Origin: an uncultured Porphyrobacter sp.
GTDB taxonomy: Bacteria; Pseudomonadota; Alphaproteobacteria; Sphingomonadales; Sphingomonadaceae
Direction: 5' to 3'
NCBI GenBank assembly: GCA_964505255.1
Contig: CAZDHB010000002.1
Location: 5,092-69,091 of the forward strand
DNA: 64,000 bases
Position numbers and translations under genes: made by a program. Within the stretch, counting starts at the first letter, position 1; every line of letters begins with the position of its first letter. This document shows, piece by piece, positions 759 through 27,711 of the stretch. Under the pieces are notes generated by a model. It saw only the letters and a list, made by a program, of their open reading frames with translations, made no database searches and was not told where the DNA came from.

Positions 759-2084
759 ATGATCCGCTCGACCCATCCGATAGCCTTGTGCATGATGCTG
801 TTTGCTATTGTGATGCCCGCTCTTACAAGCTGTGCTGCAACGACAGACCTTGGCAAGCAGGGCGGCGCCGCTTCTGTTCCCCCAACCGACGAGATAGCCG
901 CTTCGCGTTACAGCGCAGCGGACGAAGCGCTCTACATGGCTCGTTTTAAGAGGCTGTCCGAAGGAGGCAGCGGCGGCGCGGGCCTTGCTGGCTATGATAT
1001 TCTCGAGCCGATCCAAGGCGCTCAGACTTTATCGAGTTTTGAAGAAGCAAGCCCAGCGCAGCTATCGCCAGAAGCCTTGGCCAAGGCCACCCAATATGTC
1101 GCAGCGCGCAACACCGCCGCCTTCATCGTGTGGAAAGATGGGGCGATCGAGACCGAACGCTATTTCGGAGACAACACGCGCGAGACACCGCTCGTTTCCC
1201 GATCGCTTTCGAAACCCGTCACAGCCCTGATTGTTGGCCGGGCACTGGCTCAAGGCCACATCCAATCGCTCGATCAACCGGTCGCAGATTTTATCACCGA
1301 ATGGGCAGATGACCCGCGGCGTTCCAAGATACTCGTCCGGCATTTGCTCGACATGCGAACGGGTTTCCTGCCGCAAGGCTTTGCGATGGACCCGAAGGAC
1401 GTTTTGAACCGAGCCTATCTGCATCCTCGCCATGACGAGGTGATCATCCATGACTATCCCATGACGCATGAGCCAGGGACGCGATACGAATATTCCAACG
1501 CCACGTCTGAAATGGTCGCTCCGGTGATCGAGCGCGCCACGGGGATGCGCTACAGCGAATATCTCAGCCAAGCCTTGCTCGAGCCGATCGGCGCTGCAGG
1601 CGGGTCGATTTGGACCAATCGCGAGGGCGGTATGGCGCATTCGGGCTGCTGCATGCTGCTGCCGGCGCGCGCATGGCTGAAAATGGGCATTCTGGTGCTG
1701 CAGGACGGGGTTTGGGATGGCGAACAATTGTTGCCTGAAGGCTTTGCCGCGCAGATGCGGCAGGGCACAGCCGAGAACCAATATTATGGGCTCGGCCTGT
1801 GGCTGGCTGGGCAATATGTCGAAAGACGCGGCTTCGCCCATCCCTCGGTGCCATTTGGCGCAGTTCTGCATAGCGAGCCCTATCTCGACAAGGATATTGC
1901 GCTGTTTGACGGCAATGGCAATCAGACCGTCTATATGATCCCGTCGAAGAATATGGTGGTGGTGCGCCTCGGCGGGCGTCCCGCCAAAGAAGTGGAATGG
2001 GACAATCCCTTCTTGCCCAACCTTTTGATCCGCGATCTGGCCGAAAACGGCGGTGAGCCGCTGCCCGAGGTACAGCCGCTATGA
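759..2084 (+). CDS. Serine hydrolase, beta-lactamase class C/NylB-like, predicted lipoprotein
   Basis: SxxK (SLSK) and YxN (YSN) motifs. Lipobox LTSC. ATG 759 follows GAAGAGG, so it is preferred over the track start at 726. Confidence 0.85.
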   Translation: MIRSTHPIALCMMLFAIVMPALTSCAATTDLGKQGGAASVPPTDEIAASRYSAADEALYMARFKRLSEGGSGGAGLAGYDILEPIQGAQTLSSFEEASPAQLSPEALAKATQYVAARNTAAFIVWKDGAIETERYFGDNTRETPLVSRSLSKPVTALIVGRALAQGHIQSLDQPVADFITEWADDPRRSKILVRHLLDMRTGFLPQGFAMDPKDVLNRAYLHPRHDEVIIHDYPMTHEPGTRYEYSNATSEMVAPVIERATGMRYSEYLSQALLEPIGAAGGSIWTNREGGMAHSGCCMLLPARAWLKMGILVLQDGVWDGEQLLPEGFAAQMRQGTAENQYYGLGLWLAGQYVERRGFAHPSVPFGAVLHSEPYLDKDIALFDGNGNQTVYMIPSKNMVVVRLGGRPAKEVEWDNPFLPNLLIRDLAENGGEPLPEVQPL

Positions 2085-3502
2085 ACGCGAGTATTGCCTC
2101 ACAAGCCCCCAAGGCGGTTGGCCCTGGCGAGAACCAGCGTTTGCCATTCGGACTGAAGCTGGGCTGGGCCAGCGGCGCCTTTGGCATAGCGATCCTGATG
2201 AACGGTATCTCCGGTGTTATTCTCGGGTTTGCCGGAACCGTGCTCGGCATTGATCTCTGGCTCGCTGGCGCTGTCATTTTCGCGAGCAAATTGTTCGATG
2301 TTGTCACCGATCCGGTTGTGGGAATATGGAGCGACAGGCACCGCTCGCCGCGCGGCAGGCGCAGACCGTTCCTGACCTGGGGGGCAATCGTTAGCGCAGT
2401 AAGTTTTGCGCTGATTTTCACGACACCGTCGTTTGACAACCAGTATCTGACCGCGTTCTATCTTTTCCTAGCCCTTTGCATCTATGCATTTGGCTACACG
2501 CTGTTCAACATCCCTTACATGTCCATGCCAGCTGAAATGACAGACAGCTATCATGAGCGTTCCTCGATCCATGCGTACCGCATTGTCTTTGTCGCCCTGG
2601 GAGGGTTAGTTGCCGTTTCGGGCATCAAGGGCGCGGTCGGCTTTCTTGGAGAAAACGACATTGGAAGCTGGCGGATTGTCGGTCTGGCGTGCGCAGCCAT
2701 TATTTTTGTCAGTCTGCTGTGCGCTTATTTGAGCACTTCGAAAGCGCGCTTCACCGATCCGGGGGAGCAGGTAGAGGAGAACAAGTTTGAGCAATTGCGC
2801 CGGGAGTTTCGCGCTGTATTGGGCAATCGGAACTTCGTGCGGTTGATCGCGGTCAAATTTTCCCAGCTCATGGGCGTGCAAACGATTGGCGCTGCGATGC
2901 TCTATTTCTTCCTGCAATATCTGCAAAGCGACTTTGGCACTCTTGCAATCTTTGGTGTGGTGGTCACAGCATCGACAATCATCTTCGCGCCGGTGCTGGT
3001 CAAGTTTTCGAAAATCTACGGCAAGAAGGCTGCCTATTATGTCGCGGCTTTAGCCAATATTGCCTACGCAATTAGCTGGTCGTTTGCCGATCAGGGCGAG
3101 CCAGATTGGGCACTCTTTCTGCGCGCTGCTATTGTTGGCATCGCCTTTGGCGGCAATGTGATCATGGCGATGAGCATGCTGACCGATATAATCAACGAGG
3201 ATGCGGATCGCACGGGAGTGCGCCGCGAAGGGGCTTTCACGGCTCTCTATAGTTTTGTTGAGAAGCTGACCGGTGCGGTTGCGCCGCTGATCGTGGGGAT
3301 CGCTTTATCCGTTGTCGGTTTCGACAAGAATCTGCCTTTTGGTGCGGATCAGGGCGAGAACGTGAACACAGCGCTTTTGCTTGCTGTCTCGTGGCTACCC
3401 GCCATCTTCAATCTCATAGCCATCTGGCTGCTTGCCGGATACAAACTTACCGAGGCTGACGTGAACCAGTCTCGATCCAGTTCAGCGACAGGAAACGTAT
3501 AA
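2081..3502 (+). CDS. MFS transporter, GPH/MelB-like cation symporter family
   Basis: About 12 hydrophobic segments. DVVTDPVVGIWSDR..GRRRPF and NIPYMSMPAEMT motifs typical of GPH symporters. ATGA overlap with the upstream gene. Confidence 0.88.
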   Translation: MNASIASQAPKAVGPGENQRLPFGLKLGWASGAFGIAILMNGISGVILGFAGTVLGIDLWLAGAVIFASKLFDVVTDPVVGIWSDRHRSPRGRRRPFLTWGAIVSAVSFALIFTTPSFDNQYLTAFYLFLALCIYAFGYTLFNIPYMSMPAEMTDSYHERSSIHAYRIVFVALGGLVAVSGIKGAVGFLGENDIGSWRIVGLACAAIIFVSLLCAYLSTSKARFTDPGEQVEENKFEQLRREFRAVLGNRNFVRLIAVKFSQLMGVQTIGAAMLYFFLQYLQSDFGTLAIFGVVVTASTIIFAPVLVKFSKIYGKKAAYYVAALANIAYAISWSFADQGEPDWALFLRAAIVGIAFGGNVIMAMSMLTDIINEDADRTGVRREGAFTALYSFVEKLTGAVAPLIVGIALSVVGFDKNLPFGADQGENVNTALLLAVSWLPAIFNLIAIWLLAGYKLTEADVNQSRSSSATGNV

Positions 3503-4548
3503 TGGAACAGCATATAAACGATCCCCAATTGCGCCAGCGTGGCCGTGCCTCGGTTGAGTTCCTGGTCCAATTGCTCAAGGCCTCTGGTCCGGTCTTCGGA
3601 CAGGTTGGCGCGGAGATTGGCGCGAAGCTGCCCGACCCTGATGCTTTGCCTGATGATCTTGATGCGCGCGATGAGGCGATGAACGCATTGCTCGAAGACA
3701 GCGATGCCTTTGCAACGCAGCGCCTTATTGGCGATTGGCATGGCCGCATGCATGGGCGGGTTTCGGCCGAAGCCTATAATGAAATTGCAGGTGATCTGGC
3801 GCCTGTTCTCGAAGCAACCTCAAAAGGCCCTGCCACGATCGAGTATGATCCCGATATAAAACTGCCGGACTACTATGATGGCGTAAACTTCCACAGGACC
3901 ACAAGCGGGTGGACCGACAATCCCAATCAGGGGTTCATCCATGGCGAGCTGATCCACCGCAAGATGCTTGGTCGGACCTTTCCTGGCGGCATTTTCAAGC
4001 AACGTGAGACCGTGGCGGCGATGGCACCGCGTGATCATTACGACCGGATTTTGGATATGGGCTGCTCGTCTGGTCATTTTACCTATGCTTTGCAGACGGT
4101 TTACCCCGACGCGAAAATAACCGGCATCGACTATGCAGCACCGATGATGGAGCACGCCTGGCGCACCGCTAATGCCAATGGCTGGGACTGGAAACTGATC
4201 CAGCGCGGAGCAGAAGCGACAGGGTTTGACGAGGCAAGCTTCGATCTGGTGGCAAGTTACATCATCCTTCATGAAATGCCTGAGAGTGCAATCCGGGAGG
4301 TTTTTGCCGAAGCTTTTCGTGTCCTCGCGCCGGGCGGCGATATGCTGATGTCTGACGTCACACGTTATGCTGATCTCGATAAGCTATCCGTCTGGAAAGC
4401 GGACCGCGGTGCCAAATATGGCGGCGAACCCCATTGGCGCGAGTCAGCCCTGCTCGATTTCGCCGCGATCGCGCGTGATGTTGGCTTTGAAGATGTAAAG
4501 GCGGAAGGAGCCTATCCGCATGTAGTGCAGGGAAGGAAGCCTGCGTGA
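3502..4548 (+). CDS. Class I SAM-dependent methyltransferase (paralog A)
   Basis: Motif I ILDMGCSSG, acidic motif II (GID), SFDLVASYIILHEMP and RVLAPGG. TAATG coupling to the MFS gene. Confidence 0.85.
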   Translation: MEQHINDPQLRQRGRASVEFLVQLLKASGPVFGQVGAEIGAKLPDPDALPDDLDARDEAMNALLEDSDAFATQRLIGDWHGRMHGRVSAEAYNEIAGDLAPVLEATSKGPATIEYDPDIKLPDYYDGVNFHRTTSGWTDNPNQGFIHGELIHRKMLGRTFPGGIFKQRETVAAMAPRDHYDRILDMGCSSGHFTYALQTVYPDAKITGIDYAAPMMEHAWRTANANGWDWKLIQRGAEATGFDEASFDLVASYIILHEMPESAIREVFAEAFRVLAPGGDMLMSDVTRYADLDKLSVWKADRGAKYGGEPHWRESALLDFAAIARDVGFEDVKAEGAYPHVVQGRKPA

Positions 4549-4835
4549 GCGATCCGAAGGACTTCAATCTGCCCGAAGGGGCGCTCTTAGGCCAAGCACA
4601 GATTGACAATGTCGGACGAGCGCTGATCACTTTGATGCGCGAAGTCGCCGTGCTCAATGACCGGGTGCAGGTTCTAGAATGTCTGCTCGATAAGGAAGGG
4701 GTCATTGCGGCCGAAGCCGTCGACACCTTCCAAGGCGACGAGGCATTCCAGCAGCGCTCGGAACAGTCAATGGCCGCGATTGTGGGCAATGTGATGGCGG
4801 CGCTGCACGGTGCGGATGGCAACACAAGCCAATAG
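4545..4835 (+). CDS. Small helical hypothetical protein, methyltransferase-associated (paralog A)
   Basis: GTGA overlap with the methyltransferase stop. 15/34 identical to the 14338-14700 protein over the IDN...DRVxVLE..L...G segment. Confidence 0.75.
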   Translation: MSDPKDFNLPEGALLGQAQIDNVGRALITLMREVAVLNDRVQVLECLLDKEGVIAAEAVDTFQGDEAFQQRSEQSMAAIVGNVMAALHGADGNTSQ

Positions 4836-4924: not shown

Positions 4925-5869
4925 ATGCGCAAACCAGCAATCTCCTCAACACTTATTGGTGCGGCCTTGGCGCTGTCTTCCTGCATCGCCGTTCCAAGCC
5001 CGGATACGGCTGCTCTTTCATGCGCAGCGAGGATGGCGGGGGCGCAAGCCTCGTTTGATCTGCACTTGAAGGCAAAGGATGGCAGGGACATTCCGGTCAC
5101 CGTTTTCCATCCAGATGAGCCGGGCACCTATCCAGTGATTGCTTTCTCGCACGGGGCATTTGCCGCTCCGAAGCGATACACAGCAATGCTGCGCCCGATG
5201 GCTGCAGCCGGTTTTATCATTGTTGCGCCCATGCATAGGGACAGCGAGGAAGCCGGGCTCGCAAGTCCGCCATCGCAAGAGGAAGTGTGGCTGACCCGCC
5301 ATGCAGATTTTGCAATCGCCCTGTCCAAACCTGATGCCATGGCCTCTGCCCTGGCGAGCCGGGCCATTGTGGCAGATGATGCCCCTCCCATCGCCATGGG
5401 CCACAGCTATGGCGCGATAATCGCTCAATTGAGTGCAGGCGCCCAAAGCCTGATGCCTGCAGGCCGCAGCGTTGATGCACCCTTGGATTTGCAAGCAGTG
5501 ATTGCATGGTCACCCCCAGGCGAGGCGAAAGGGATGATCGAGAATGCCGGATGGAGCACTATGGCAACGCCCAGCATGGTCCTGACGGGAACCACAGATA
5601 TTCTCCCCGGCTTTGTCGATGATTGGGAAGACCGAAAGGCCAGCTTCATCCATGCGCCGGCGGGGAACAAGGCTCTGTGGGTAGGAAACCGGATTGATCA
5701 CTATTTCGGCGGCATGTTTGGCAGGGTCAAACCTGCTGATGCAAATTCACAAGGTCTCATGCAGCGGGCGTTGGAACGATCGGTCCAGTTTCTCGACGAA
5801 AACACGGGCAGATATCCTGCTTGCAGCCTTGAGCCATCCTTTAATGGCGAGCAATTTGTCCAGGGCTGA
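4925..5869 (+). CDS. Alpha/beta hydrolase (chlorophyllase/PAF-AH-like fold), predicted lipoprotein
   Basis: FSHG oxyanion motif, GHSYG nucleophile elbow, candidate Asp (TTDILP) and His (IDHYFGG). Lipobox LSSC. Confidence 0.8.
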   Translation: MRKPAISSTLIGAALALSSCIAVPSPDTAALSCAARMAGAQASFDLHLKAKDGRDIPVTVFHPDEPGTYPVIAFSHGAFAAPKRYTAMLRPMAAAGFIIVAPMHRDSEEAGLASPPSQEEVWLTRHADFAIALSKPDAMASALASRAIVADDAPPIAMGHSYGAIIAQLSAGAQSLMPAGRSVDAPLDLQAVIAWSPPGEAKGMIENAGWSTMATPSMVLTGTTDILPGFVDDWEDRKASFIHAPAGNKALWVGNRIDHYFGGMFGRVKPADANSQGLMQRALERSVQFLDENTGRYPACSLEPSFNGEQFVQG

Positions 5870-6063
5870 AAAGTAAAGAGTCGCCTTTTCTCTGCTAGAA
5901 TAAATGGATGAGAATCACCGAAGAGCGGGGATTTTACATAAATCGGGCGGGTCTTGGGGCTACTTTACCCGCCAATCGGATAAAAATGGCATTTGTTTGC
6001 GCTGTAACATGCCTGCTCTTTGATGAATGGAGTACCGACATCAAGGGTAGGGAGTCATTTAAC

Positions 6064-8514: not shown

Positions 8515-8538
8515 AAGTTCAAGAAGAAAAAAATCAGC

Positions 8539-8610: not shown

Positions 8611-9870
8611 ATGACCACTATTAGAGACATTATTCTTGCGCCAGCCAATGGAGCCTTCTTCTACGACGACCAAGCCGCGATCCGCTCCGGCTTGAAGCAG
8701 GATGGCTTCGACTACATCGGAAAACCCGTAACAGATGGCTTTGAGCGCATTCGTCAGCCATCAAGAGCGCTCAGCATTGGTCTGGTTCTTGACAATGGCT
8801 CCGTCGCCTGGGGCGATATGGTCAGCGTCCAATATTCAGGCGCTGCGGGGCGTGATCCATTGTTCGATCCCGAGAAAATTGCGGTGCTGGCCGACGATAT
8901 CCTGCGACCAGAGCTAATAGGGCGGCAGGCGGACGAGGTTCAAACAAATTGTGATGAGGTGCTGGACAAAGAGCGCCCATCGCCGCTCCCTTTGGCGGTG
9001 AAATATGGGCTAAGCCAAGCTTTGATAGCTGCGGCGGCTAACACCAAGCAATGCACCCCGGCCGAAATTGTCTGCGATGCATTTGGTCGCCCCTACCCTA
9101 CCGTGCCGATCCCCATCTTTGCTCAAAGCGGTGATGAGCGATATCTCAACGTTGACAAGATGGTGCTCAAGAAGGTCGATATCTTGCCGCACGGCCTGAT
9201 CAATTCAGCCGAAAAGTTCGGTCCCGAGGGCAGGACCTTTTCCGACTATGTGGAATGGGTCGCCAATCGCGCGACGCAGCTCGGTGGAGAAACTTACCGT
9301 CCCAAGCTGCATTTCGATCTCTATGGCTGGATTGGATTGGGAATCAGCGATGATCCAGAAAAAGTCGCCAGCTTTATCGCGCAATGCGCAGAAAAAGTTC
9401 CTTTGTTTGACCTGCTGATTGAGAGCCCAGTCGATTACGGCGAACGCTCGCTTCAGATCGAAAAATACGCCCAAATCGTAAGCGCGATGGAGCGGATTGG
9501 CACAAGCGCCAAAATCGTGGCGGACGAGCATTGCAATACACTTGGCGACATTCGCGATTTTTGTGACGCGAAAGCGGCGCATGTGATCCAAGTAAAAACG
9601 CCTGATGTTGGCAGCCTGCTCGATACGGCGAGCGCCATTCAATATGCCAAACAATCGGGCGTTGGAGCCTATTGCGGAGGGACGAGTGCAGAAACCGACG
9701 TATCAGCGCGCGCTTGCGTCCATGTCGCGCTTGCTATGCAGGCCAATATGATGCTCGCCAAACCGGGTATGGGCGTTGACGAAGCGATCTGTATTGTCGG
9801 CAATGAGCAAAGTCGCGCGCTGGCGCAGATCCGCTACAACACATCGGCGCAAGCGCGAAACAATGGCTGA
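8611..9870 (+). CDS. mal: Methylaspartate ammonia-lyase (enolase superfamily)
   Basis: MAL signatures WGD..VQYSGAAGRDPLF, FAQSGD, PHGLIN, HFDLYG, IESP, ADEHCN, QVKTPD and LAKPGMGVDE. Confidence 0.9.
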   Translation: MTTIRDIILAPANGAFFYDDQAAIRSGLKQDGFDYIGKPVTDGFERIRQPSRALSIGLVLDNGSVAWGDMVSVQYSGAAGRDPLFDPEKIAVLADDILRPELIGRQADEVQTNCDEVLDKERPSPLPLAVKYGLSQALIAAAANTKQCTPAEIVCDAFGRPYPTVPIPIFAQSGDERYLNVDKMVLKKVDILPHGLINSAEKFGPEGRTFSDYVEWVANRATQLGGETYRPKLHFDLYGWIGLGISDDPEKVASFIAQCAEKVPLFDLLIESPVDYGERSLQIEKYAQIVSAMERIGTSAKIVADEHCNTLGDIRDFCDAKAAHVIQVKTPDVGSLLDTASAIQYAKQSGVGAYCGGTSAETDVSARACVHVALAMQANMMLAKPGMGVDEAICIVGNEQSRALAQIRYNTSAQARNNG

Positions 9871-11857: not shown

Positions 11858-11859
11858 CC

Positions 11860-21519: not shown

Positions 21520-22332
21520 ATGCCAGAAGCGATCCCTACCCAGATCCAGCGCATCGACGTTGGTGATGCTGAAATCCACACAGAGATAACCGGCAGCGGA
21601 CCAGATTTGCTGCTGGTTGCTGGGCTTGGCGGACGCGGCGCATTTTGGCACAAACAAGTCCAGACCTTTGCGCAGCATTTCCGCGTCATCACTTTCGATC
21701 ATCGCGGCTGCGGTGAGAGCACGCCGGACAAGGTCGTCTATGGCGCAGAGCACATGGCGAAAGACGTGCTTGCGCTGATGGATTCGATGGAGATTGAATG
21801 CGCGCGTCTTGTCGGCCATTCGACAGGCGGCGCCATTGGCCAGCATATCGCTCTCAAACATCCCGAGCGGCTGAAACAGCTGGTGCTTTCTTGCAGTTGG
21901 GCCGGACCTGACACTTACCTCACCGAACTGTTTCGAACGCGGCGCGAAGTGCTGATCAGCTGCGGTCCGCTCGCCTATCTGACCATGGGCACTTATCTCG
22001 CCATGCCGCCACGCGCGCTGCAAGAACAGATGAGCGATGCGCGTGCGTTTATGGAAGAGCGGCTCGCTGCCTTCCCCGGCCTTGAGGTCGAGCTATCGCG
22101 CATCAATGCGGTCTACACCCACGATCTGCGCAGCGAGCTTCATAAGATCGCCGTGCCAACTTTATGCATCGGTGCAGAGAATGATGGCATAACCCCGCCC
22201 GGTTTTACCGAGGAGATGGCGCGGCTGATCCCTGATGCGGAGCTGCATCTGCTGCACTCAGGTGGACATTTCTGCCCGATCGCCGCGACCGACGAGTACA
22301 ACCCTCGTGTGCTTGAATTCCTCAACGGCTGA
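21520..22332 (+). CDS. Alpha/beta hydrolase, RutD/amide hydrolase-like
   Basis: LVAGLGG, DHRGCG, GHSTGG nucleophile elbow, AENDGITP and GGHF. ATG 21520 directly follows the ALDH stop (the track start 21184 overlaps ALDH). Confidence 0.8.
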   Translation: MPEAIPTQIQRIDVGDAEIHTEITGSGPDLLLVAGLGGRGAFWHKQVQTFAQHFRVITFDHRGCGESTPDKVVYGAEHMAKDVLALMDSMEIECARLVGHSTGGAIGQHIALKHPERLKQLVLSCSWAGPDTYLTELFRTRREVLISCGPLAYLTMGTYLAMPPRALQEQMSDARAFMEERLAAFPGLEVELSRINAVYTHDLRSELHKIAVPTLCIGAENDGITPPGFTEEMARLIPDAELHLLHSGGHFCPIAATDEYNPRVLEFLNG

Positions 22333-22881: not shown

Positions 22882-23880
22882 ATGCGTATTATCCCTCAAT
22901 CCGAGGTCGAACGCCTCTTGCCCGTTGGCGCCTGTGTCGATGTCATGCGGCAGGCCATGATCGCGGTAAGCCAAGGCGACGTGACCCTGCCAATCCGTCA
23001 ATTCATGCCGGTGCCCGGAGCAGCAGGCAAAATGGCGATTATGCCCGGCTCGCTTGGCACAGCAAAGCAAACACACGATGCGAGTTTTGGGATCAAGCTG
23101 GTATGCAAATACGAGCGGCCTCAAGATGATCCGCTCGGCACACATGTGGGCATGGTTATCCTGTTCGACAGCGCAAAAGGCGTACCGCTAGCGATGATCG
23201 AGGGGTCCTCCCTCACCGCCATCCGAACGTCTGCCGCCAGCGCGCTCGCCGCGCAATTGATGGCGCGCGAAGATGCAGCACGCCTCGCGATCCTGGGGAA
23301 TGGCGAGCAAGCCGCACGCCATGTCGATGCAATGATGGCTGTCCGCGATATCTCGGAAATAACTGTATGGGGCCGCGATCCGGCACGCGCTGAGGCTTTT
23401 GCTCGAGCGACAGCCGAGCGGGTCGGACTGCCCGTCCAAACCGCCCCTACAGTGAGCGAGGCTGTCGCGGACGCAGAGATCATTTGCACCACCACTTCCG
23501 CGAAAGAACCGATCTTGCACGGCGCTGACCTCAAACCCGGTCAACATATCAATTTGGTTGGCGCGGCCATTCCGACAAGCGCCGAGGTCGATTCCGAAGC
23601 AGTCGCGCGCAGCCGCTTTGTGGTCGATTACCGCCCCGCTGCCATGGCAGCAGCCGGTGAGCTGCTAAACGCGATTAAGGACTCAAGCGTTACCGAGGCG
23701 CATATCGCTGGCGAGATAGGGGAAATTGCAGCGGGCAAAATTCCGGGACGCAGTTCGCCGGATGACATCACCCTATACAAATCGCTTGGCGTCGCCGCGC
23801 AGGATTTGGCCGCAGCGCATGCTTTGTGGACTTTGGCAGAGCAAGAAAGCAGCGGGATCGAGGTTGATCTGCTTGCCTAA
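22882..23880 (+). CDS. Ornithine cyclodeaminase/mu-crystallin family protein (imine reductase or C-N lyase)
   Basis: LTAIRTSAAS, ILGNGEQA Rossmann motif, ICTTTSA and TLYKSLGVAAQDLAAA. Confidence 0.9.
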   Translation: MRIIPQSEVERLLPVGACVDVMRQAMIAVSQGDVTLPIRQFMPVPGAAGKMAIMPGSLGTAKQTHDASFGIKLVCKYERPQDDPLGTHVGMVILFDSAKGVPLAMIEGSSLTAIRTSAASALAAQLMAREDAARLAILGNGEQAARHVDAMMAVRDISEITVWGRDPARAEAFARATAERVGLPVQTAPTVSEAVADAEIICTTTSAKEPILHGADLKPGQHINLVGAAIPTSAEVDSEAVARSRFVVDYRPAAMAAAGELLNAIKDSSVTEAHIAGEIGEIAAGKIPGRSSPDDITLYKSLGVAAQDLAAAHALWTLAEQESSGIEVDLLA

Positions 23881-23892: not shown

Positions 23893-24582
23893 TTATGTCC
23901 GGTTGAAGAATGCTTTTTTGGTTTCTTCGCTCGGGTTGCCAACCTTCATACCCGCTTTCAGCACCGCCATACCGCGCTGGACTGCTGGCCGCGCCTCGAC
24001 CTTGTCAATCCACGCGCGAACATGCGGGAATTTCGAAATGTCCACACCGTGCAATTCTTGCTGGCGCGCATCCATCCATGGATAGGTGGCCATGTCTGCC
24101 ACACCATAATCGCAGCTTGGCGTCATCCACTCATTGCATGCCAGGTGCCTGTCAACCAGGCCATAGAGCCGCTGGACCTCACCTGAGTAGCGCTTGATTG
24201 CATAGGGCACTTGCTCATCCGCATATCCTCGGAAATGACCGCACTGGCCGAACATCGGCCCGATATTAGCGCATTGGAAGAACAGCCACTGACGGATCAA
24301 GGATTGCTGAACTGGATCATCTGACCAGAATTGCCGCGTTTTCTCGCATAGATAAAGCAATATCGCGCCGCTTTCGAAAACCTCATGCTGCGCACCGCCC
24401 GGCCCATCGTGGTCAACAATTGCAGGCACCCGGTTGTTAGGGCTGATCGCGATGAATTCTGGCTGGTGTTGTTCGCCCTTCAATATGTTGATTGGCTTAA
24501 CCGTGTAATCCAGCCCGAACTCTTCCAACGCGATGGAGATCTTGTGGCCATTGGGAGTTGGCCAAAAGTAGAAATCGATCAT
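23893..24582 (-). CDS. Glutathione S-transferase, Nu class (YfcG-like)
   Basis: TPNGHK N-terminal motif, SPNNRVPAI and FESGAILLYL. Confidence 0.88.
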   Translation of the reverse strand: MIDFYFWPTPNGHKISIALEEFGLDYTVKPINILKGEQHQPEFIAISPNNRVPAIVDHDGPGGAQHEVFESGAILLYLCEKTRQFWSDDPVQQSLIRQWLFFQCANIGPMFGQCGHFRGYADEQVPYAIKRYSGEVQRLYGLVDRHLACNEWMTPSCDYGVADMATYPWMDARQQELHGVDISKFPHVRAWIDKVEARPAVQRGMAVLKAGMKVGNPSEETKKAFFNRT

Positions 24583-25313
24583 GCCGCATGCGCCTTTTGC
24601 AGCGCGAGCACCTCTTGCACTGCGGTTTGGAGCCGCGTGGCCGAAGTATCGCCGGAGAAATCAACATTGTAATGCGATTGGACCGAGGGACGCTCCAACG
24701 CCGCATCATACCAATCCGAAAGAGCTGGCCGCCCATCGCGCCAGTTAAAATTGGGATGAATTGGGTCTTTCGCTTCGTAAAATTCGGCCCGAAAACCCAA
24801 ATAGCTGATCGCATGCAGCATGGCGGCATGGCCAATATCGAATTGTTCCCAACCTTTCACAGCTTCCTCGTTCATCCAATCAAGCGAGCGGATAAATTTG
24901 GGCCACATCCGTTCAAAGACGTACATGTTCCACTGCTCTGGTTCCTGCCATTGCTCGGCGACCATCTGCACAGTGCCCTCGAAGATGGTATCGGCCATCG
25001 CCAGCCGCGTAATCGCGTCCCACCGCGCAGGGCCGGCTTCAGGGTACATCTTTGCTGCCTTGGAATGCGCGTCAAGATATTCGCATACCGCTTGGCTGCC
25101 AAAGACGACTTGACCAGTATCCGTTGCCAGCGTCGGGACTTTGCTCAGTGGATTAATCGCAGAGATCGAATAGGCATCGCCTTGATCCTCTCCATCCAGA
25201 TTCTTGAAAGGAAAGGTCGCGATGAAGTCGATATCATCCCACAGACCGCACTCATGGGCGGTGACGAGGACCTTATGGATGAATGTGTGGAAGGGCGAAT
25301 AGAACAGCTTCAT
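24579..25313 (-). CDS. Glutathione S-transferase family protein (divergent)
   Basis: NPLSKVPTL, FGSQAVCEYLD and thioredoxin-like N-domain MKLFYSP..F.HKV. ATGA overlap with the Nu-class GST. Confidence 0.78.
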   Translation of the reverse strand: MKLFYSPFHTFIHKVLVTAHECGLWDDIDFIATFPFKNLDGEDQGDAYSISAINPLSKVPTLATDTGQVVFGSQAVCEYLDAHSKAAKMYPEAGPARWDAITRLAMADTIFEGTVQMVAEQWQEPEQWNMYVFERMWPKFIRSLDWMNEEAVKGWEQFDIGHAAMLHAISYLGFRAEFYEAKDPIHPNFNWRDGRPALSDWYDAALERPSVQSHYNVDFSGDTSATRLQTAVQEVLALQKAHAA

Positions 25314-25335: not shown

Positions 25336-26316
25336 TCAATGTGCGCCGACTTTCTTGTGATCGGGCGAAACTTCTTTGGAGGACAATTCTCCGGCGTCTT
25401 CCTTCTCCTTCATCTTCTTGAAGGTATCGAACTCATTGACGCCGCCCATTTCGCGTCTCGGCCAGCGTGTTGCAAATCCGCGTGGATAGCGGCTGTCATC
25501 ATCCTTTCGCCCGTCTTCTGACCAGATCAGCGGGAAGAGATCACCTTCTGGTTTTTCTCCGTCGAGCATCTCGTCAAAGCTAACGCCAGCGATATTCAAA
25601 CAGTCAGGGCGCGGCGCCCAGCGGATGTCATCACCAAACACGCGCTGCGAGACAGCGATGCGGTAATCATCGGTAGGATTGCCTGCCGAATAGTGCAGCA
25701 CCCACGGGTTCACGACCAGCATATCGCCCGGCTCCATTTCCCATTGCAGGAAGCGCAAGCCGTCCTCGCCGCGGCGGCTCTCGATATCGGGATGCGGTAC
25801 GCGATCGTCTGGTTTGATCATCTTGCGCGCATTGGGGCTGAAGAGCCAATACGGCACATCGTCATTCTGAGTGCCCGCCAGCACTTCGAGGCAGTTCTCT
25901 TTTACAATCGGTGTGAGCGGTATCCAAAGGGATGGCACCATTTTTCCTGCCACCGGAAATGCCATGCGATCGCAATGCCACAAGGTGGCAGCGTCCGATT
26001 GCGGCGGCTTGGCAAAAAACTCATCGAAGAAGAAACGGATTTCCTTCGATTGCATGACCCGCCCGGCCGCCTCGGCGATGGGACTTTCAAAAACCATCCG
26101 CCGATATTCGGGAATGCAACGCGCCATGTACCGGCCGGGAATTGTGGGGAGGAGGCCGACGTCCTTCTTTTCGACAATAACCTCGCGTGCGACAGGCTCG
26201 AGCATCTCGATCCAGTCCTTGTCGAGCACTTTGCGCAAGCACACAGCGCCATCGCGATTGTAGGCATCGATATCGTCCTGCGTGATCTCACGTAGGGGGC
26301 GCGAATTGAGCGGCAT
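25336..26316 (-). CDS. Phytanoyl-CoA dioxygenase (PhyH)-family Fe(II)/2-oxoglutarate oxygenase
   Basis: HxD (WHCD), SLWIPL, MEPGD.L distal His (VLHYSAGN) and downstream Arg (YRIAVS). Confidence 0.85.
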   Translation of the reverse strand: MPLNSRPLREITQDDIDAYNRDGAVCLRKVLDKDWIEMLEPVAREVIVEKKDVGLLPTIPGRYMARCIPEYRRMVFESPIAEAAGRVMQSKEIRFFFDEFFAKPPQSDAATLWHCDRMAFPVAGKMVPSLWIPLTPIVKENCLEVLAGTQNDDVPYWLFSPNARKMIKPDDRVPHPDIESRRGEDGLRFLQWEMEPGDMLVVNPWVLHYSAGNPTDDYRIAVSQRVFGDDIRWAPRPDCLNIAGVSFDEMLDGEKPEGDLFPLIWSEDGRKDDDSRYPRGFATRWPRREMGGVNEFDTFKKMKEKEDAGELSSKEVSPDHKKVGAH

Positions 26317-26493
26317 ATTTGGTTCCTTGATTGAGGCCAGACAAATAGGCGTGTCCGCAAGACCCCATAAGTCAGCCGCCCGGTTCTAACCACGGTTTGG
26401 ATAATCAAACATCAGGTTACCGCACAGTGGTGACGCAGGCCAAATGGCCATGGGTTTCCCGACAAGGATCATATTGGTGCGCTGATAACCCCA

Positions 26494-27711
26494 GTGGAGA
26501 GAGTTTTGAAAGAATACCGCACCAAAGTTGTTGTTGCAGGTGCTGGCCCCGTCGGTAGCGTCGCGGCCTATCTACTTGCGCAGCAAGGCATAGAGGTTGT
26601 CCTAGCCGAAGCGCAAAGCGATTGCGCACTCGACCTGCGCGCCTCAACTTTCCATCCACCTACGCTGGAAATGCTCGATGATTTCGGGATCACCGAGAAG
26701 CTAATTGAGCTTGGCCTCAAGGCCCCAATATACCATTTCCGTGAACGTCAATCGGGCGACGTGATCGACTTCGACCTGTCAGAAATTTCGGACCTCACCC
26801 GTTTTCCTTACCGCGTACAATGCGAGCAATACCACCTTTCTCGCATGCTTTCCGAAGCGGTAAGCGATGCGCGCGGAGCAGAAGTTCTGCGCAACCACCG
26901 TGTCATTGGATATGAACAGGATGGCGACGGTGTCTCGGTTTATGTCGAAAGCTCTACCGAAATTGTCAAAATTCGCGCTGATTTTCTGATCGGTGCTGAT
27001 GGCTCTAACTCGATGGTCCGCAAATGGATGGGCACCGGCTTTGATGGCTTCACCTATCCGGAGCGCTTTCTTTGCTACACCTCGAAAGTCCCGCTTGAAG
27101 AGCGGCTCGAAAATCTGAGCTACGTCAATTACGTCTCTGACCCCGAAGAGTGGATGGTGCTGCTGCGTGTTCCCTCCTTGTGGCGTATCCTCGTGCCTGC
27201 AACAGAGAACATGAGCGATGAAGAGCTGAAGGGCGATGCGAAAAAGGTTGAGGTATTTGACCGGCTTTTGGGCGACGGCGAAAGTGTCGAAACCGTCCAT
27301 CGCACGGTCTATCGCGTGCATCAACGAGTGGCAAAGAGCTTTGTCGACAGGCGCGTGGCAATCATTGGCGATGCAGCGCATCTCAACAATCCGATCGGCG
27401 GGTTCGGTATGAACAGCGGTATCCATGATGCATTCAATCTGTGCGAGAAAATGGACGCCATTTACAATCATGGCCGGGATGCCGAAAACGCGCTTGGTCT
27501 GTTTGATCGTCAGCGTCGCAAAACCACGCATGATTTCATTCAGGCCCAGACGATCAAGAACATGGAATTTTTGTCAGATGGTGCAGGAAAGCTGCATGAG
27601 AAGCGGAAGGCCGAGTTCCTCGCGATCAAGGCCGACCCCACAAAACGCCGTGAGTTTCTTCGGCGCCAAGCAATGATCCAATGTTTGGAAGACGAGAAGG
27701 CCATAGCTTAA
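26494..27711 (+). CDS. Group A flavin monooxygenase (MhpA/phenol hydroxylase-like)
   Basis: VAGAGPVG, IGADGSNS and IIGDAAHLNNPIGGFGMNSGIHDAFNL. Start is GTG 26494 or TTG 26506. Confidence 0.88.
   Translation: MERVLKEYRTKVVVAGAGPVGSVAAYLLAQQGIEVVLAEAQSDCALDLRASTFHPPTLEMLDDFGITEKLIELGLKAPIYHFRERQSGDVIDFDLSEISDLTRFPYRVQCEQYHLSRMLSEAVSDARGAEVLRNHRVIGYEQDGDGVSVYVESSTEIVKIRADFLIGADGSNSMVRKWMGTGFDGFTYPERFLCYTSKVPLEERLENLSYVNYVSDPEEWMVLLRVPSLWRILVPATENMSDEELKGDAKKVEVFDRLLGDGESVETVHRTVYRVHQRVAKSFVDRRVAIIGDAAHLNNPIGGFGMNSGIHDAFNLCEKMDAIYNHGRDAENALGLFDRQRRKTTHDFIQAQTIKNMEFLSDGAGKLHEKRKAEFLAIKADPTKRREFLRRQAMIQCLEDEKAIA

Follow-up and report, generated by a model that had tools for sequence, protein, structure and literature searches.

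A putative uptake and breakdown gene cluster of mosaic makeup, marked by methyltransferases paired with small helical proteins

The 27-kb island at the start of the window (the whole 64,000-nt stretch of DNA analyzed) is a mosaic of about four modules with a co-conserved core. The evidence supports an undescribed (orphan) uptake and breakdown cluster. Its signature is a set of two paralogous class I methyltransferases, each beside a paralogous helical protein of 96–120 residues. We put at about even odds (roughly 0.5) that this supercluster catabolizes an exogenous N-containing cyclic organic acid, probably a phototroph product that arrives as an ester or conjugate, with the pathway ending at 3-methylaspartate/mesaconate.

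Gene content and organization

The ORF listing, Pfam and independent gene calls on identical public contigs agree on exactly 24 genes within positions 759–27711 (Table 1). They are tightly packed and many are coupled, as described in the first-pass annotation: 96.6% (∼97%) of the bases are coding, six junctions overlap by 1–8 nt, and nine more have gaps of at most 22 nt. GC content is uniform across the island (0.53–0.59). A search for RNA runs containing island sequence found none.

Every protein family named by that annotation was found with Pfam: a TonB receptor (plug and barrel), GPH-type and ACS-type MFS importers and an IclR regulator; three hydrolases (beta-lactamase-family, chlorophyllase/PAF-AH-like and RutD-like); the redox families FAD_binding_3 (two monooxygenases), PhyH, Cupin_2, FAD_binding_4, Aldedh and FAD_binding_2; and OCD/mu-crystallin, MAL, two GSTs, an ICL/PEP-mutase lyase and a family III CoA-transferase. 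The list was incomplete, covering 20 of the 24 genes and leaving out MT1, s96, s120 and MT2. NRPS, PKS, ligase and ATP-grasp scaffold enzymes are absent among the 24 genes by Pfam. The receptor, two importers and regulator, together with this absence, support the original proposal of an uptake and catabolic locus.

Table 1. Genes of the island, with window coordinates and main basis of assignment.
Product	Position	Strand	Basis
Beta-lactamase-family serine hydrolase (family VIII esterase/peptidase-like), predicted lipoprotein	759..2084	+	PF00144, 93 bits; start from public gene call
GPH/MFS_2-family cation symporter, inner-membrane importer 1	2081..3502	+	PF13347, 278 bits
MT1, class I SAM-methyltransferase fold with ∼170-aa N-terminal extension	3502..4548	+	Methyltransf_25/11, residues 183–282 only
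s96, 96-aa helical partner of MT1	4545..4835	+	called as gene on public contig
Chlorophyllase/PAF-acetylhydrolase-like alpha/beta hydrolase, predicted lipoprotein	4925..5869	+	PF07224, 43 bits (cutoff 26)
TonB-dependent outer-membrane receptor	5986..8514	+	Plug + barrel
3-Methylaspartate ammonia-lyase (MAL)	8611..9870	+	TIGR01502, 549 bits (cutoff 286)
Family III CoA-transferase, dicarboxylate type	9863..10987	+	PF02515, 338 bits
IclR-family regulator	11072..11857	+	HTH_IclR + IclR_C
Soluble FAD_binding_2 flavoprotein, fumarate reductase (Frd)/tricarballylate dehydrogenase TcuA-like	11860..13272	-	PF00890, 167 bits
ICL/PEP-mutase-family C-C lyase, methylisocitrate/2,3-dimethylmalate lyase type	13320..14195	-	PDB matches
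s120, 120-aa helical partner of MT2	14338..14700	+	adjoins MT2 in 79/80 genome loci
MT2, class I methyltransferase with new N-terminal helical domain	14706..15800	+	Pfam match, residues 193–292 only
FMO1, group A flavin monooxygenase, decarboxylative-hydroxylase clade	15804..16964	-	PDB matches
FAD-linked oxidase, FAD_binding_4/FAD-oxidase_C clade	16961..18559	-	Pfam
MFS_1 importer, anion:cation symporter type, inner-membrane importer 2	18679..20034	+	PF07690, 143 bits
NAD(P)-dependent aldehyde dehydrogenase (ALDH)	20037..21515	+	PF00171, 585 bits
Alpha/beta hydrolase (ABH), RutD/enol-lactonase/esterase-like	21520..22332	+	RutD TIGR03611, 181 (cutoff 238)
Metal-binding monocupin, 172 aa	22348..22866	+	Cupin_2
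OCD/mu-crystallin-family ketimine (cyclic imino acid) reductase	22882..23880	+	PF02423, 231 bits
GST1, YfcG/YghU-like, nu class	23893..24582	-	GST_N
GST2	24579..25313	-	GST_N_2 + GST_C_2
PhyH-family Fe(II)/2-oxoglutarate oxygenase, MysH-like	25336..26316	-	PF05721
FMO2, second group A flavin monooxygenase, MhpA/PRK08132-like	26494..27711	+	FAD_binding_3, 185 bits

Methyltransferase–partner pairs

The methyltransferases of both pairs each carry a new N-terminal domain of ∼170 residues; the 173 N-terminal residues of MT1 have no Pfam match even at E=10. MT1 and MT2 are 31% identical, s96 and s120 29%, and the s96 and MT1 genes overlap by 4 nt. s120 has no match in Pfam or NCBIfam and contains the conserved motif GxEIxGxG..YFDN..DN..ALLEL.A.VWT..DR..VLE. 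Since a Foldseek search with the AF2 model of MT2 (pLDDT 81) retrieves only generic C-, O- and N-methyltransferases (TM ≤0.49), the fold does not discriminate between these specificities.

MT2 is found in 147 species (GTDB representative genomes), and its relatives form 276 clusters at 50% identity (E<1e-30). MT1 orthologues (51–65% identity) adjoin MT2 in at least 10 loci, and the pair of MT1 and a small ORF recurs in loci L086 and L087. In a paralogous methyltransferase subfamily, 43 of 69 loci retain a small partner specific to it. Its neighbors are again catabolic enzymes, namely hydantoinase A/B, an isochorismatase-like amidase, an HMGL-like lyase, a family III CoA-transferase, an FMO and an ABH; one such locus also holds two PhyH genes, an MFS and a TonB receptor. 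The one apparent partner–methyltransferase fusion (P0418) is probably a frameshift artefact and was thus not counted as evidence; its long-read contig has 2x coverage, and a PQQ dehydrogenase gene there is also split.

Conserved core and mosaic structure

Co-occurrence was counted across 80 loci outside this genome, many of them truncated contigs, which belong to Sphingomonadales, Rhodospirillaceae, Hyphomonadaceae and several Gammaproteobacteria; the loci were anchored on MT2, which biases the counts toward methyltransferase-containing loci. The ABH, FAD oxidase, MFS_1 importer (56/80), cupin, ICL-family gene, OCD reductase and FMO1 each occur in 48–58 of these loci, PhyH and ALDH in 37 and 36, respectively; the genes flanking the island in the window occur in none. 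The clustering is far beyond chance: order and orientation vary, but the same families stand together in dozens of genomes spread over two proteobacterial classes, and the window flanks occur in none of them. The possibility, raised at first, that the genes are not co-conserved does not apply to a core of about 10 genes.

About 150 species of aquatic bacteria carry the core set, and compact 12-gene versions occur in unrelated taxa. In L083, L085 and L090 it is arranged as OCD-cupin-ABH-MT2-s120, LysR with PhyH-GMC, ICL-like-MFS, and FADox-FMO1. PhyH-anchored look-ups recovered the same gene set in two of three genomes. A second module, Blac-ABH-MT1-s96 (Blac, beta-lactamase-family hydrolase; ABH, here a homologue of the chlorophyllase-like hydrolase), is one operon adjoining the core in Hyphomonadaceae locus L086. 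In 30 of the 80 loci, a homologue of the beta-lactamase-family hydrolase is found no more than 10 kb from MT2.

Contrary to the first assumption, the island is not one unit. Even relatives whose MT2 is 83–87% identical have a different gene order. MAL, the CoA-transferase, the Frd-like flavoprotein and IclR are limited to a subset of Sphingomonadales, and distant loci have a LysR regulator in place of IclR. The TonB receptor and chlorophyllase-like hydrolase are rarely co-located with the core, with TonB receptors also present in L083, L087, L089 and L091. GST1 (1/80 loci), GST2 (none of the 80; overlapping GST1 by 4 nt) and FMO2 (8/80, mainly gammaproteobacterial) are not co-conserved with the core and may be unrelated neighbors.

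Relatives add a propionate/acetate-CoA ligase, Zn-ADH, GMC oxidase, EutA/hydantoin-racemase-like proteins and a PuuE-like cyclic amidohydrolase, enzymes that fit cyclic amide chemistry and short-acid products.

Predicted uptake and periplasmic hydrolysis

Lipoprotein signal sequences can be read from the translations of both periplasm-facing hydrolases, with lipoboxes LTSC (beta-lactamase-family) and LSSC (chlorophyllase-like); the latter also has a GHSYG motif. Its PF07224 match spans only one third of the profile, and its top PDB match is a chlorophyllase (29.6 bits, E 4.6e-6). The TonB receptor falls under all NCBIfam receptor cutoffs. The GPH symporter, whose gene overlaps that of the upstream beta-lactamase-family hydrolase by 4 nt, scores 216 against TIGR00792 (cutoff 231). 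The MFS_1 importer best matches the D-galactonate transporter subfamily in NCBIfam and shares 33% identity with the MFS encoded by the paralogous L091 system.

Predicted ring and C-N chemistry

FMO1 matches tropone 2-monooxygenase (200 bits), NicC (176), decarboxylative vanillate and 4-hydroxybenzoate hydroxylases (165–168) and salicylate hydroxylase (157) in the PDB, and scores 226 against NCBIfam 3-hydroxybenzoate 6-monooxygenase (cutoff 459). NCBIfam matches of FMO2 are all under cutoff, as are the closest models of the aldehyde dehydrogenase (phenylacetaldehyde and betaine-aldehyde dehydrogenases). GST1 reaches 205 against NF010579 (cutoff 332).

The FAD oxidase had been described as VAO-type. 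Foldseek with its AF2 model (pLDDT 83) finds vanillyl-alcohol dehydrogenase and eugenol oxidase (TM 0.70–0.72), D-lactate/D-2-hydroxyacid dehydrogenases about equally near (0.70), and AGPS (0.66), all at 16–20% identity. This near-equal likeness to 4-phenol oxidases and D-2-hydroxyacid dehydrogenases does not allow assignment to phenol or 2-hydroxyacid chemistry.

The RutD-like hydrolase scores 95 bits against PDB RutD and directly follows MT2 in distant loci. In the monocupin, H69, H71, H75, E76, H110 and N114, the metal ligands among them, are invariant in 45/45 homologues; PDB searches give only weak neighbors (TcmJ, 5-nitrosalicylate dioxygenase, DddK and quercetinase), and the protein may not be a dioxygenase but an isomerase or hydrolase. 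The OCD protein matches delta1-pyrroline-2-carboxylate reductase (171 bits), ketimine reductase (142) and iminosuccinate reductase (101).

Predicted C5-dicarboxylate end point

A C5-dicarboxylate end point, already suggested by the first-pass annotation, is the best-supported part of the predicted chemistry, because a bona fide MAL, with both MAAL_N and MAAL_C domains, overlaps (by 8 nt) a family III CoA-transferase. The latter scores about equally (219–227 bits), and far under cutoff, against NCBIfam succinate-glutarate, oxalate and succinyl-CoA:mesaconate CoA-transferases. The FAD_binding_2 flavoprotein scores 239 against flavocytochrome c (cutoff 285) and 172 against TcuA. The C-C lyase matches PrpB (159 bits) and DMML (155 bits) and has the catalytic loop K-I-C-G-H; the ICL-family member of distant core loci lacks Cys-Gly-His and is thus a different paralogue. 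MAL, the CoA-transferase, the Frd-like flavoprotein and IclR occur in only some Sphingomonadales, so ending at mesaconate may not be a general feature of the core pathway.

Proposed pathway

Three candidate substrates are ranked, each of low probability: first carboxylates of methyl-branched pyridone, lactam or imide type, then, slightly lower, mycosporine-like amino acids, and last, as highly improbable, pyrrolic fragments of tetrapyrrole pigments. We infer all of the following steps; for MAL, the direct result is its family assignment. The TonB receptor would import the conjugate, from which the two lipoprotein serine hydrolases would free a smaller acid in the periplasm, and the GPH symporter and anion-type MFS would bring the products into the cell. 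Each methyltransferase with its ∼12-kDa helical partner (MT1/s96, MT2/s120) would form a new two-protein cytoplasmic unit that attaches a methyl group, either to the substrate or to an intermediate formed early on, for transient activation or masking. Spending SAM is unusual and costly for a catabolic route, which counts against the proposed pathway. This methyl group, or an N-substituent, would later be removed by the adjoining alpha/beta hydrolase and/or the MysH-like oxygenase.

The decarboxylative-type flavin hydroxylase, FAD oxidase and aldehyde dehydrogenase may prepare the ring, the 3His-1Glu cupin may cleave it, and a hydrolase may split the product. The ketimine reductase would then convert an imino acid into an amino acid, thus conserving the nitrogen. 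In the host organism this amino acid would be 3-methylaspartate or its precursor; MAL would yield mesaconate and ammonia, and activation of the C5 diacid would fall to the overlapping CoA-transferase. A parallel branched-chain acid could be handled by the TcuA/Frd-like flavoprotein and the PrpB/DMML-type lyase, which has the catalytic Cys, and the GSTs might isomerize a cis-enedioate.

Comparison with known systems

Among the 24 proteins, only MAL passes a curated NCBIfam cutoff; PDB sequence neighbors are distant, and no described pathway matching the island was found in NCBIfam, PDB sequences or the full-text literature searched. The orphan status first proposed is thus supported. The analogies drawn at the time to nicotinate (NicC/NicD), vitamin B6 (MHPCO/AAMS hydrolase) and pyrimidine (RutD) degradation are likenesses at the family level only, with the RutD-like hydrolase under cutoff (Table 1) and none of the partner genes of these pathways in the island.

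Conservation within the set is highest for PhyH (64–88% identical across classes), in which H114-x-D116, H208 and R219/R225, including the iron ligands, are invariant in 29/29 homologues. Its sole strong PDB match is MysH (83 bits, E 2e-22), followed by SnoN (25 bits). This closeness to the N-dealkylating MysH counts in favor of the proposed breakdown of an N-containing cyclic acid.

Organization and genomic context of the island

The island is an orphan catabolic cluster with an apparently new enzyme pair, a methyltransferase and a small helical partner; what it degrades and why it methylates are matters of conjecture. ORF, Pfam and public gene calls bear out the 24 genes at 759-27711 counted in the first-pass annotation, and Pfam confirms every protein family named there. 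Four genes that it had left unnamed encode two methyltransferases, MT1 and MT2, and their respective partners, s96 (4545-4835) and s120 (14338-14700). Coding sequence makes up 96.6% of the bases; six of the gene junctions are overlaps of 1-8 nt, and most others are shorter than 25 nt. The GC content is uniform (0.53-0.59), giving no compositional sign of recent transfer.

The source is a seawater metagenome-assembled genome of an Erythrobacter-like member of the Sphingomonadales, with identical contigs in ENA and JGI, and the closest genomes are those of uncultured Erythrobacter and Parasphingorhabdus. The photosynthesis gene cluster in the window indicates that the host is an aerobic anoxygenic phototroph. 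Adjacency to this cluster was dropped as a functional clue, since it is seen at none of the 80 other loci compared here. No Rfam match to a cis-regulatory RNA was found anywhere in the 64-kb window, and the island sequence was found only in seawater DNA metagenomes, in no RNA run.

Features of the window and of compared loci, with the number of MT2-anchored loci that have a homologue near MT2. Many of the 80 loci end at contig ends, so the counts are lower bounds.
Feature	Position (nt)	Loci (of 80)	Description
Left border			TPR-like ORF
Module 1			Blac-GPH-MT1-s96, hydrolase and TonB receptor
Module 2			MAL-CoAT-IclR / Frd-lyase
Module 3			s120-MT2 / FMO1-FAD oxidase / MFS-ALDH-ABH-cupin-OCD
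Module 4			GST-GST-PhyH / FMO2
MT1	3502-4548		methyltransferase
s96		5	small helical partner of MT1
MT2	14706-15800		methyltransferase, anchor of the comparison
s120		79	small helical partner of MT2
ABH		58	RutD-like alpha/beta hydrolase
FAD oxidase		57	
MFS		56	importer
Cupin		54	
ICL-family gene		54	
OCD		50	ketimine reductase
FMO1	15804-16964	48	group A flavin monooxygenase
PhyH		37	
ALDH		36	
Blac		30	beta-lactamase-family hydrolase
IclR		28	
Frd-like		27	FAD_binding_2 flavoprotein
MAL		17	3-methylaspartate ammonia-lyase
GPH		17	importer
CoAT		14	family III CoA-transferase
TonB receptor		11	
FMO2	26494-27711	8	group A flavin monooxygenase
Chlorophyllase-like hydrolase		3	
GST1		1	
Flanking genes of the window		0	
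Right border			427-bp gap, then DUF3422 gene, cytochrome c gene and photosynthesis gene cluster from 30.1 kb
DUF3422 gene (331 bits, full-length) and cytochrome c gene	28139-30084		between island and photosynthesis cluster
Photosynthesis gene cluster	30151-44820 and beyond		hemA-like aminotransferase, puhE (DUF3623), acsF-like rubrerythrin protein, puhA, lhaA/PucC; further genes bchM, bchL, bchH, bchB, bchN
Region compared with the Frd-lyase operon of relatives, which has CoA ligase and Zn-ADH genes	13272-14338		neither gene in the window
L088, Erythrobacter isolate 229	12316-17177		PhyH and integrated element
L091, paralogous system	7083-14411		PhyH-MT-112-aa partner-MFS-PhyH-TonB receptor
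L175, plasmid pSA1	1077800-1102867		MT2 matches on a megaplasmid
L176, protein P0418	3070-4554		apparent partner-methyltransferase fusion

Conservation and modular structure

Every protein of the window was scored against 80 loci from a one-genome-per-species collection, anchored on MT2 and taken out of 147 matching species; a homologue was counted if it lay no more than 10 kb from MT2. The carriers are Alphaproteobacteria (Sphingomonadales, Rhodospirillaceae, and Hellea and Algimonas of the Hyphomonadaceae) and Gammaproteobacteria (Aliiglaciecola, Congregibacter, Chromatocurvus, Arenicella and Steroidobacterales, OM60-type bacteria included) from seawater and oceans, lakes, glacier-fed streams and algal cultures. 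Distant taxa have a compact version of about 12 genes, which differ in order and orientation. Loci L083, L085 and L090, for example, are arranged as OCD-cupin-ABH-MT2-s120 / LysR, PhyH-GMC / ICL-like-MFS / FAD oxidase-FMO1. Look-ups anchored on PhyH regained the same neighbourhood in two of three genomes.

The first-pass annotation had named a lack of co-conservation as one of the results that would count against a single pathway. In the comparison of 80 loci the core proved to be co-conserved, whereas the whole 27-kb island is, by sequence comparison, a mosaic of four modules. In a Hyphomonadaceae locus, a further module (Blac, a PAF-AH/chlorophyllase-like hydrolase, MT1 and s96, often with GPH) forms an operon beside the core, and MT1 orthologues occur alongside MT2 in at least 10 loci. 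Gene order is already changed in relatives with 83-87% MT2 identity; in loci L004-L012, Blac-GPH is placed after OCD. These close relatives, together with L017 and L020, carry, between Frd and the lyase, genes for a propionate/acetate-CoA ligase and a Zn-ADH. Neither gene is present in the 64-kb window, which suggests a recent loss or relocation.

The variable gene order, seen even among close relatives, could also reflect independent accretion, that is, unrelated small operons that became neighbours by chance and share no substrate. GST1, GST2 and FMO2 show essentially no co-conservation, homologues of the TonB receptor and of the chlorophyllase-like hydrolase seldom accompany the core, and PhyH lies about 300 kb from MT2 in one close relative. 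However, the same 10-12 families have been re-assembled in many orders in both Alpha- and Gammaproteobacteria, often with translational coupling, and modules 1 and 2 adjoin in at least 10 loci. This pattern argues for selection for co-localization rather than chance, and we consider accretion quite improbable.

The relative with the distant PhyH gene is Erythrobacter isolate 229, where PhyH adjoins an integrated element with genes for a serine recombinase, a ParB-like methylase, DUF5681, DUF3489 and DUF2924.

Methyltransferase-partner pairs

MT1 and MT2 are paralogues (31% identity), as are s96 and s120 (29% identity). In both methyltransferases, the class I SAM-methyltransferase domain is confined to the C-terminal half (Methyltransf_25/11 matches), while the first ~170 residues and the small partners have no match in NCBIfam or, even at E=10, in Pfam. 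The AlphaFold model of MT2 (AF2, pLDDT 81) consists of a Rossmann-type methyltransferase domain with a helical N-terminal domain as a cap. Motif I is conserved as the variant L-D-x-G-C-S-x-G, in which Ser replaces the middle Gly. A near-invariant stretch, E-I-H-x-Q-P-G-G-Y...H-Y-G-T...N-D-Q-D-E-x-H, is located just before the Rossmann domain. By these features MT1 and MT2 are assigned to the class I SAM-dependent methyltransferase fold, with predicted SAM binding. Foldseek searches with the MT2 model returned many methyltransferases at a probability of 1.0, all generic C-, O- and N-methyltransferases, so that no methyl-acceptor specificity could be obtained from the structure despite the good model.

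The partner is a helical protein of ~12 kDa that contains neither Cys nor His and conserves the motif G-x-E-I-x-G-x-G...Y-F-D-N...D-N...A-L-L-E-L...V-W-T...D-R...V-L-E. A profile search of 1.8 billion representative proteins gave 276 full-length-matching clusters at E<1e-30. The pair is undescribed in NCBIfam (June 2026), PDB sequences and the full-text literature searched; with its own N-terminal domain and its small helical partner, the methyltransferase is apparently a new enzyme type. A candidate fusion of partner and methyltransferase, P0418, is probably a frameshift artefact: it is encoded on a long-read contig of 2x coverage, and the adjoining PQQ dehydrogenase gene is split.

A paralogous branch of methyltransferases, ~31% identical to MT1 and MT2, has at least 500 matches in metagenome contigs and keeps a partner of ~112 aa in 43 of 69 loci. 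Its neighbours include ATP-dependent hydantoinase/oxoprolinase A (16 loci) and B (10), isochorismatase-family amidases (10), family III CoA-transferases (9) and HMG-CoA-lyase-like proteins (8), in addition to ABH, FMO1-like, FAD-oxidase-like and Frd-like proteins. Among window-type loci, the Hyphomonadaceae locus is bounded by an isochorismatase-family gene on one side and by HMGL-like and hydantoinase genes on the opposite side, and the Congregibacter locus encodes two EutA/hydantoin-racemase-family proteins and a PuuE-like cyclic amidohydrolase. Novosphingobium megaplasmids, unannotated in PLSDB, carry distant methyltransferase homologues only (32-40%). These contexts indicate that the methyltransferase and its partner are a recurrent component of loci that look, from their gene content, like systems for the catabolism of cyclic amides or imides and of branched dicarboxylates.

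One of these megaplasmids, pSA1 of Novosphingobium resinovorum SA1, contains six MT2 matches, one of which lies among homologues of a TonB receptor, HyuB, ALDH, an ICL-like protein, isochorismatase and ABH. On metagenome contigs L127, L135, L144, L151 and L173, isochorismatase-HyuB-HyuA-HMGL-like genes are divergent from CoA-transferase-isochorismatase-297-aa protein-MT-partner, which appears to be another undescribed type of catabolic operon. In the paralogous system of L091, also seen in L092, the methyltransferase, PhyH, MFS and receptor are 28-34% identical to their counterparts in the window. Its flanks encode a secreted SOUL/haem-binding-family protein, two DUF1838 proteins, and SnoaL-like and LytTR proteins.

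Predicted functions and candidate substrates

MAL is the only one of the 24 proteins that scores above a curated NCBIfam cutoff (TIGR01502, 549 bits versus 286), and it also matches PF05034 (MAAL_N, 166 bits) and PF07476 (MAAL_C, 318 bits). PDB sequence searches with 10 island proteins found no close characterised homologue. CoAT, which overlaps MAL, scores equally against succinate-glutarate, oxalate and mesaconate CoA-transferases, in each case below the cutoff. The ICL-family protein is ~40% identical to PrpB and to dimethylmalate lyase. It misses the PrpB equivalog cutoff (217 versus 354) and, by that criterion, its substrate is not methylisocitrate. The lyase loop P-K-I-C-G-H, which holds the catalytic Cys, is conserved in 26 of 53 homologues and assigns the window protein to the lyase branch (PrpB/DMML/PDP) of the ICL/PEP-mutase superfamily; the ICL-family paralogue of the distant core loci is without Cys-Gly-His, implying a different function there.

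The metal site of the cupin is complete, and H69, H71, H75, E76 and H110 occur without exception in its 45 homologues; its neighbours are weak only. OCD is nearest to delta1-pyrroline-2-carboxylate and ketimine reductases, followed by iminosuccinate reductase. For the FAD oxidase, the "VAO-type oxidase" of the first-pass annotation, the model (pLDDT 83) is equidistant from D-2-hydroxyacid dehydrogenases (Foldseek TM 0.70), 4-phenol oxidases (0.70-0.72) and alkyl-DHAP synthase, with identities of 16-20%. Assignment as a p-cresol/vanillyl-type phenol oxidase was dropped because of this ambiguity.

FMO1 is nearest to decarboxylative hydroxylases (tropone 2-monooxygenase, NicC, vanillate/4-hydroxybenzoate 1-hydroxylases and salicylate hydroxylase), scoring 176 bits against NicC and 127-189 bits against HpxO, and ABH is nearest to RutD and esterases (NCBIfam 181.5 bits versus a cutoff of 238.5; PDB 95 bits). 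These similarities are consistent with degradation of a methyl-branched N-heteroaromatic or lactam acid of the pyridone, pyridine-carboxylate, hydantoin or imide type. By a logic like that of the nicotinate or Rut pathways, (decarboxylative) hydroxylation would be followed by ring cleavage, a deformylase or amidase step, and isomerization of a cis-enedioate to mesaconate. MAL and CoAT point to a methyl-branched C4 backbone, and related loci encode isochorismatase-family amidases (the family of NicF, RutB and carbamoylsarcosine amidase), Asp/Glu/hydantoin-racemase-family proteins (the NicE family), a PuuE-like cyclic amidohydrolase and ATP-dependent hydantoinase/oxoprolinase pairs. However, NicA/B, NicX, NicF, NicE and RutA/B/C are all absent from the window, in which tblastn found no isochorismatase or hydantoinase, and every similarity is below its curated cutoff. 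Nor do the nicotinate and Rut pathways include anything that corresponds to the OCD reductase, to the MysH-like oxygenase or to the methyltransferases. A substrate of this class is on balance unlikely, although it ranks first among the three classes considered here.

PhyH is the most conserved protein of the island (64-88% identity across classes). Its sole strong relative among solved structures is MysH (83 bits, E 2e-22; no other PhyH fold exceeds 25 bits), and its iron triad H-x-D...H, invariant in homologues, aligns with the iron ligands of MysH. Based on fold, triad and this specific affinity, PhyH is classified by sequence as a MysH-type protein. The similarity raises the possibility that the island degrades MAAs or gadusol-type sunscreens released by algae or cyanobacteria. 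The MysH-like oxygenase, with OCD or the FAD oxidase, would strip the amino-acid substituents, the RutD-like hydrolase would hydrolyse the enaminone, and a GMC oxidase or ALDH would oxidize the ring hydroxymethyl. The cupin would then cleave the cyclic 2-methoxy-1,3-diketone, like Dke1 or acireductone dioxygenases, and the branched C4-C5(C7)-C6-C1 fragment would yield itaconate or mesaconate. RutD-type enamine hydrolysis and cupin cleavage of diketones are established chemistry. MAAs, which are rich in N and contain a branched C7 ring, are organic acids with a plausible chemical route to a C5 diacid; the carriers are aquatic, often from high-light or alga-associated taxa; and no bacterial MAA catabolic genes were found in the literature searched. 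Nevertheless, the case is essentially a single protein similarity of only ~30% identity. MAA chemistry offers no role for a methyltransferase, as MAAs are already O-methylated, no glycosidase is present despite the GPH transporter, and the FMO1-type aromatic hydroxylases and two esterases are left unexplained. We regard sunscreens as a distinctly unlikely substrate.

Both periplasm-facing hydrolases have lipoprotein signal sequences. One of them exceeds the Pfam chlorophyllase threshold and has a chlorophyllase as its top PDB match, which would suit the import of chlorophyll or other tetrapyrrole derivatives and the degradation of their methyl-substituted pyrrolic fragments (maleimides, hematinic acid, pyrrolinones). 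The esterases would de-esterify the pigment and the methyltransferase would esterify a propionate side chain, as BchM does. The size of a pigment would require a TonB receptor. Each pyrrole ring bears a methyl group, in keeping with branched diacids and with enzymes of the TcuA-like tricarboxylate dehydrogenase and dimethylmalate-lyase types. Further hints are the SOUL protein of L091, encoded beside the PhyH-MT-partner-MFS-PhyH-receptor genes, and the photosynthesis genes next to the island. However, the match to chlorophyllase is a weak one that covers one third of the profile (29.6 bits), and the hydrolase occurs in few loci. The SOUL protein is found in that one paralogous locus only, the island adjoins a photosynthesis gene cluster in this genome alone, and there are no haem oxygenase or bilin reductase genes. 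Pigment degradation is, in our view, very doubtful.

Two SAM methyltransferases, an imine reductase and an Fe/2OG oxygenase related to MysH, which itself acts in biosynthetic tailoring, form a typical tailoring set and would also suit a salvage or biosynthetic system that methylates, hydroxylates or reduces an imported precursor into a sunscreen, osmolyte or signal of the host's own. Scaffold-forming enzymes are absent, however, and MAL, CoAT, the C-C lyase, ALDH, the importers, the LysR/IclR regulators and the acyl-CoA ligase of relatives are a classic catabolic make-up; a biosynthetic role is highly unlikely. Microcystin (beta-methylaspartate, MlrB-like hydrolase), betaine-lipid head groups, siderophore recycling and APD-type alkylproline chemistry were set aside for want of support, as were ectoine-type rings, for which EctC-, EctD-, EutA- and EutC-like families occur with weak scores only.

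A putative uptake and catabolic pathway

The reading we favour is a general scheme of uptake and catabolism, to which we give about an even chance (roughly 0.5); only the family assignments come directly from the analysis, and we infer the order of the steps. A conjugate would enter through the outer-membrane TonB receptor and be de-esterified or de-acylated by the two lipoprotein serine hydrolases, with GPH and the anion-type MFS importing the products. The methyltransferase and its partner would methylate the substrate or an early intermediate. Flavin-dependent hydroxylation, possibly decarboxylative, FAD-dependent oxidation and aldehyde oxidation would prepare the ring, the cupin would cleave it, and the alpha/beta hydrolase would split the product. 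The OCD-type reductase may trap an imino acid as the amino acid, as BhcD does. In this genome, MAL would free ammonia from 3-methylaspartate, and the overlapping CoA-transferase would activate the resulting mesaconate. The TcuA/Frd-like flavoprotein and the PrpB/DMML-type lyase would process the branched acid to pyruvate and a short acid, products that are consistent with the acyl-CoA ligase of relatives.

The methyl group may be transient, either as an ester mask of the BioC/BioH kind or as an activating N- or O-methyl group that is later removed. A transient role is favoured because ABH directly follows MT2 in most compact loci and a MysH-like, putatively N-dealkylating oxygenase is the most faithful companion. 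A bolder version, which we think improbable, would make this the first bacterial pathway for the breakdown of phototroph sunscreens or pigments, MAAs foremost and pyrrolic chlorophyll or bilin fragments second. Transient SAM methylation by the two-protein methyltransferase would be its obligatory first cytoplasmic step, undone by the MysH-like oxygenase or an esterase.

Should the core pathway prove real, aquatic heterotrophs of ~150 species from oceans, lakes and glacier-fed streams would have a previously unrecognised way to regain carbon and nitrogen from a specialised compound, probably of phototroph origin, and the methyltransferase unit would add a new enzyme type found in several hundred catabolic-looking loci. 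To our knowledge, degradative pathways rarely employ SAM-dependent methylation. Among the many orphan catabolic clusters, this one stands out by its broad conservation, its unusual methyltransferase unit and the existence of cultured carriers, which makes it directly testable. The cultured carriers include Parasphingorhabdus marina DSM 22363, Altererythrobacter lutimaris JGD-16, Erythrobacter sp. HA6-11, W53 and HL-111, Altererythrobacter sp. GH1-8 and BO-6, and Aliiglaciecola sp. SL4.

Comparison with known systems

The gene combination matches no described pathway in NCBIfam (June 2026), PDB sequences or the full-text literature, which was searched for MAL with OCD and cupin, homarine, mycosporine catabolism, MysH, betaine lipids, the family combination, maleimide/hematinic acid, and hydantoinase with isochorismatase, CoA-transferase and methyltransferase. 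The homarine operon homABCDER, in which HomA (a FAD protein) is adjacent to HomB and which also encodes the peptidase HomC and the aldehyde dehydrogenase HomD (PMC13236597), was rejected as a match by its described gene content only, the sole shared item being a generic ALDH.

In general plan the island resembles classical aerobic heterocycle clusters, with a receptor, importers, a regulator, a hydroxylase, ring cleavage, a hydrolase and a lower pathway. The nic pathway of Pseudomonas putida (NicC, NicX, NicD, NicF and NicE) likewise has a flavin-dependent decarboxylative hydroxylase and an alpha/beta hydrolase that acts after ring cleavage. Its cis-enedioate product needs isomerization, and isochorismatase- and racemase-family genes occur in loci related to the island. 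However, the island itself lacks these two genes as well as NicAB, NicX (an M29-type dioxygenase, in whose place it has the cupin), NicF and NicE; FMO1 is NicC-like at the family level only; and the product of the island would be methyl-branched, as indicated by MAL. The island also adds the methyltransferase pairs, the OCD reductase, the MysH-like oxygenase, the TonB receptor and the periplasmic esterases. The Rut pathway (RutA-G) shares with the island an ABH nearest to the enamine (aminoacrylate) hydrolase RutD, but the match is below the cutoff (TIGR03611), and RutA, RutB, RutC, RutE and RutF are missing.

Membership in the gentisate pathway is not supported: the best score against the 3-hydroxybenzoate 6-hydroxylase model NF006021 is 226 versus a cutoff of 459, the island cupin, a monocupin of 172 aa, scores 23 bits against gentisate 1,2-dioxygenase (GDO), a bicupin of ~350 aa, and the island GSTs score 50 and 29 bits against the cutoff of 171 for the MaiA-type GST isomerase. 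As in the beta-hydroxyaspartate cycle (BhcABCD, BhcR), an OCD-family enzyme would rescue an imino acid without loss of ammonia, and the regulator is of the IclR type. The scores are far below the cutoffs, though (BhcD 167 versus 500; BhcR 65 versus 350), BhcA, BhcB and BhcC are absent, and the island encodes no aminotransferase, dehydratase or aldolase; the amino acid formed would here be 3-methylaspartate, which MAL would remove.

MysH of cyanobacterial MAA biosynthesis resembles the island PhyH in sequence, and its reaction, the oxidative removal of an N-carboxymethyl group, is an N-dealkylation that could be used in catabolism. PhyH differs in being longer (326 versus 270 aa) and in occurring in heterotrophs, in a catabolic context that has no MAA biosynthetic genes. 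BioC and BioH of biotin synthesis, which place a methyl-ester mask on a dicarboxylate and remove it with an alpha/beta esterase, are mirrored by MT2-ABH in one operon (L083, L085, L087 and L090) and by dicarboxylate CoA-transferases near the methyltransferase, with BioC among the weak NCBIfam matches. This is an analogy only, as the BioC model scores 37-45 bits versus a cutoff of 185, BioC has no N-terminal domain or partner, and the context of the island is catabolic rather than biosynthetic.

The lower part of the island is reminiscent of methylaspartate and mesaconate metabolism in glutamate fermentation and the haloarchaeal cycle, in that a bona fide MAL is followed by a family III CoA-transferase like succinyl-CoA:mesaconate CoA-transferase. 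Glutamate mutase, mesaconyl-CoA hydratase and methylmalyl-CoA lyase are not part of the island, where methylaspartate or mesaconate would instead come from the imported compound.
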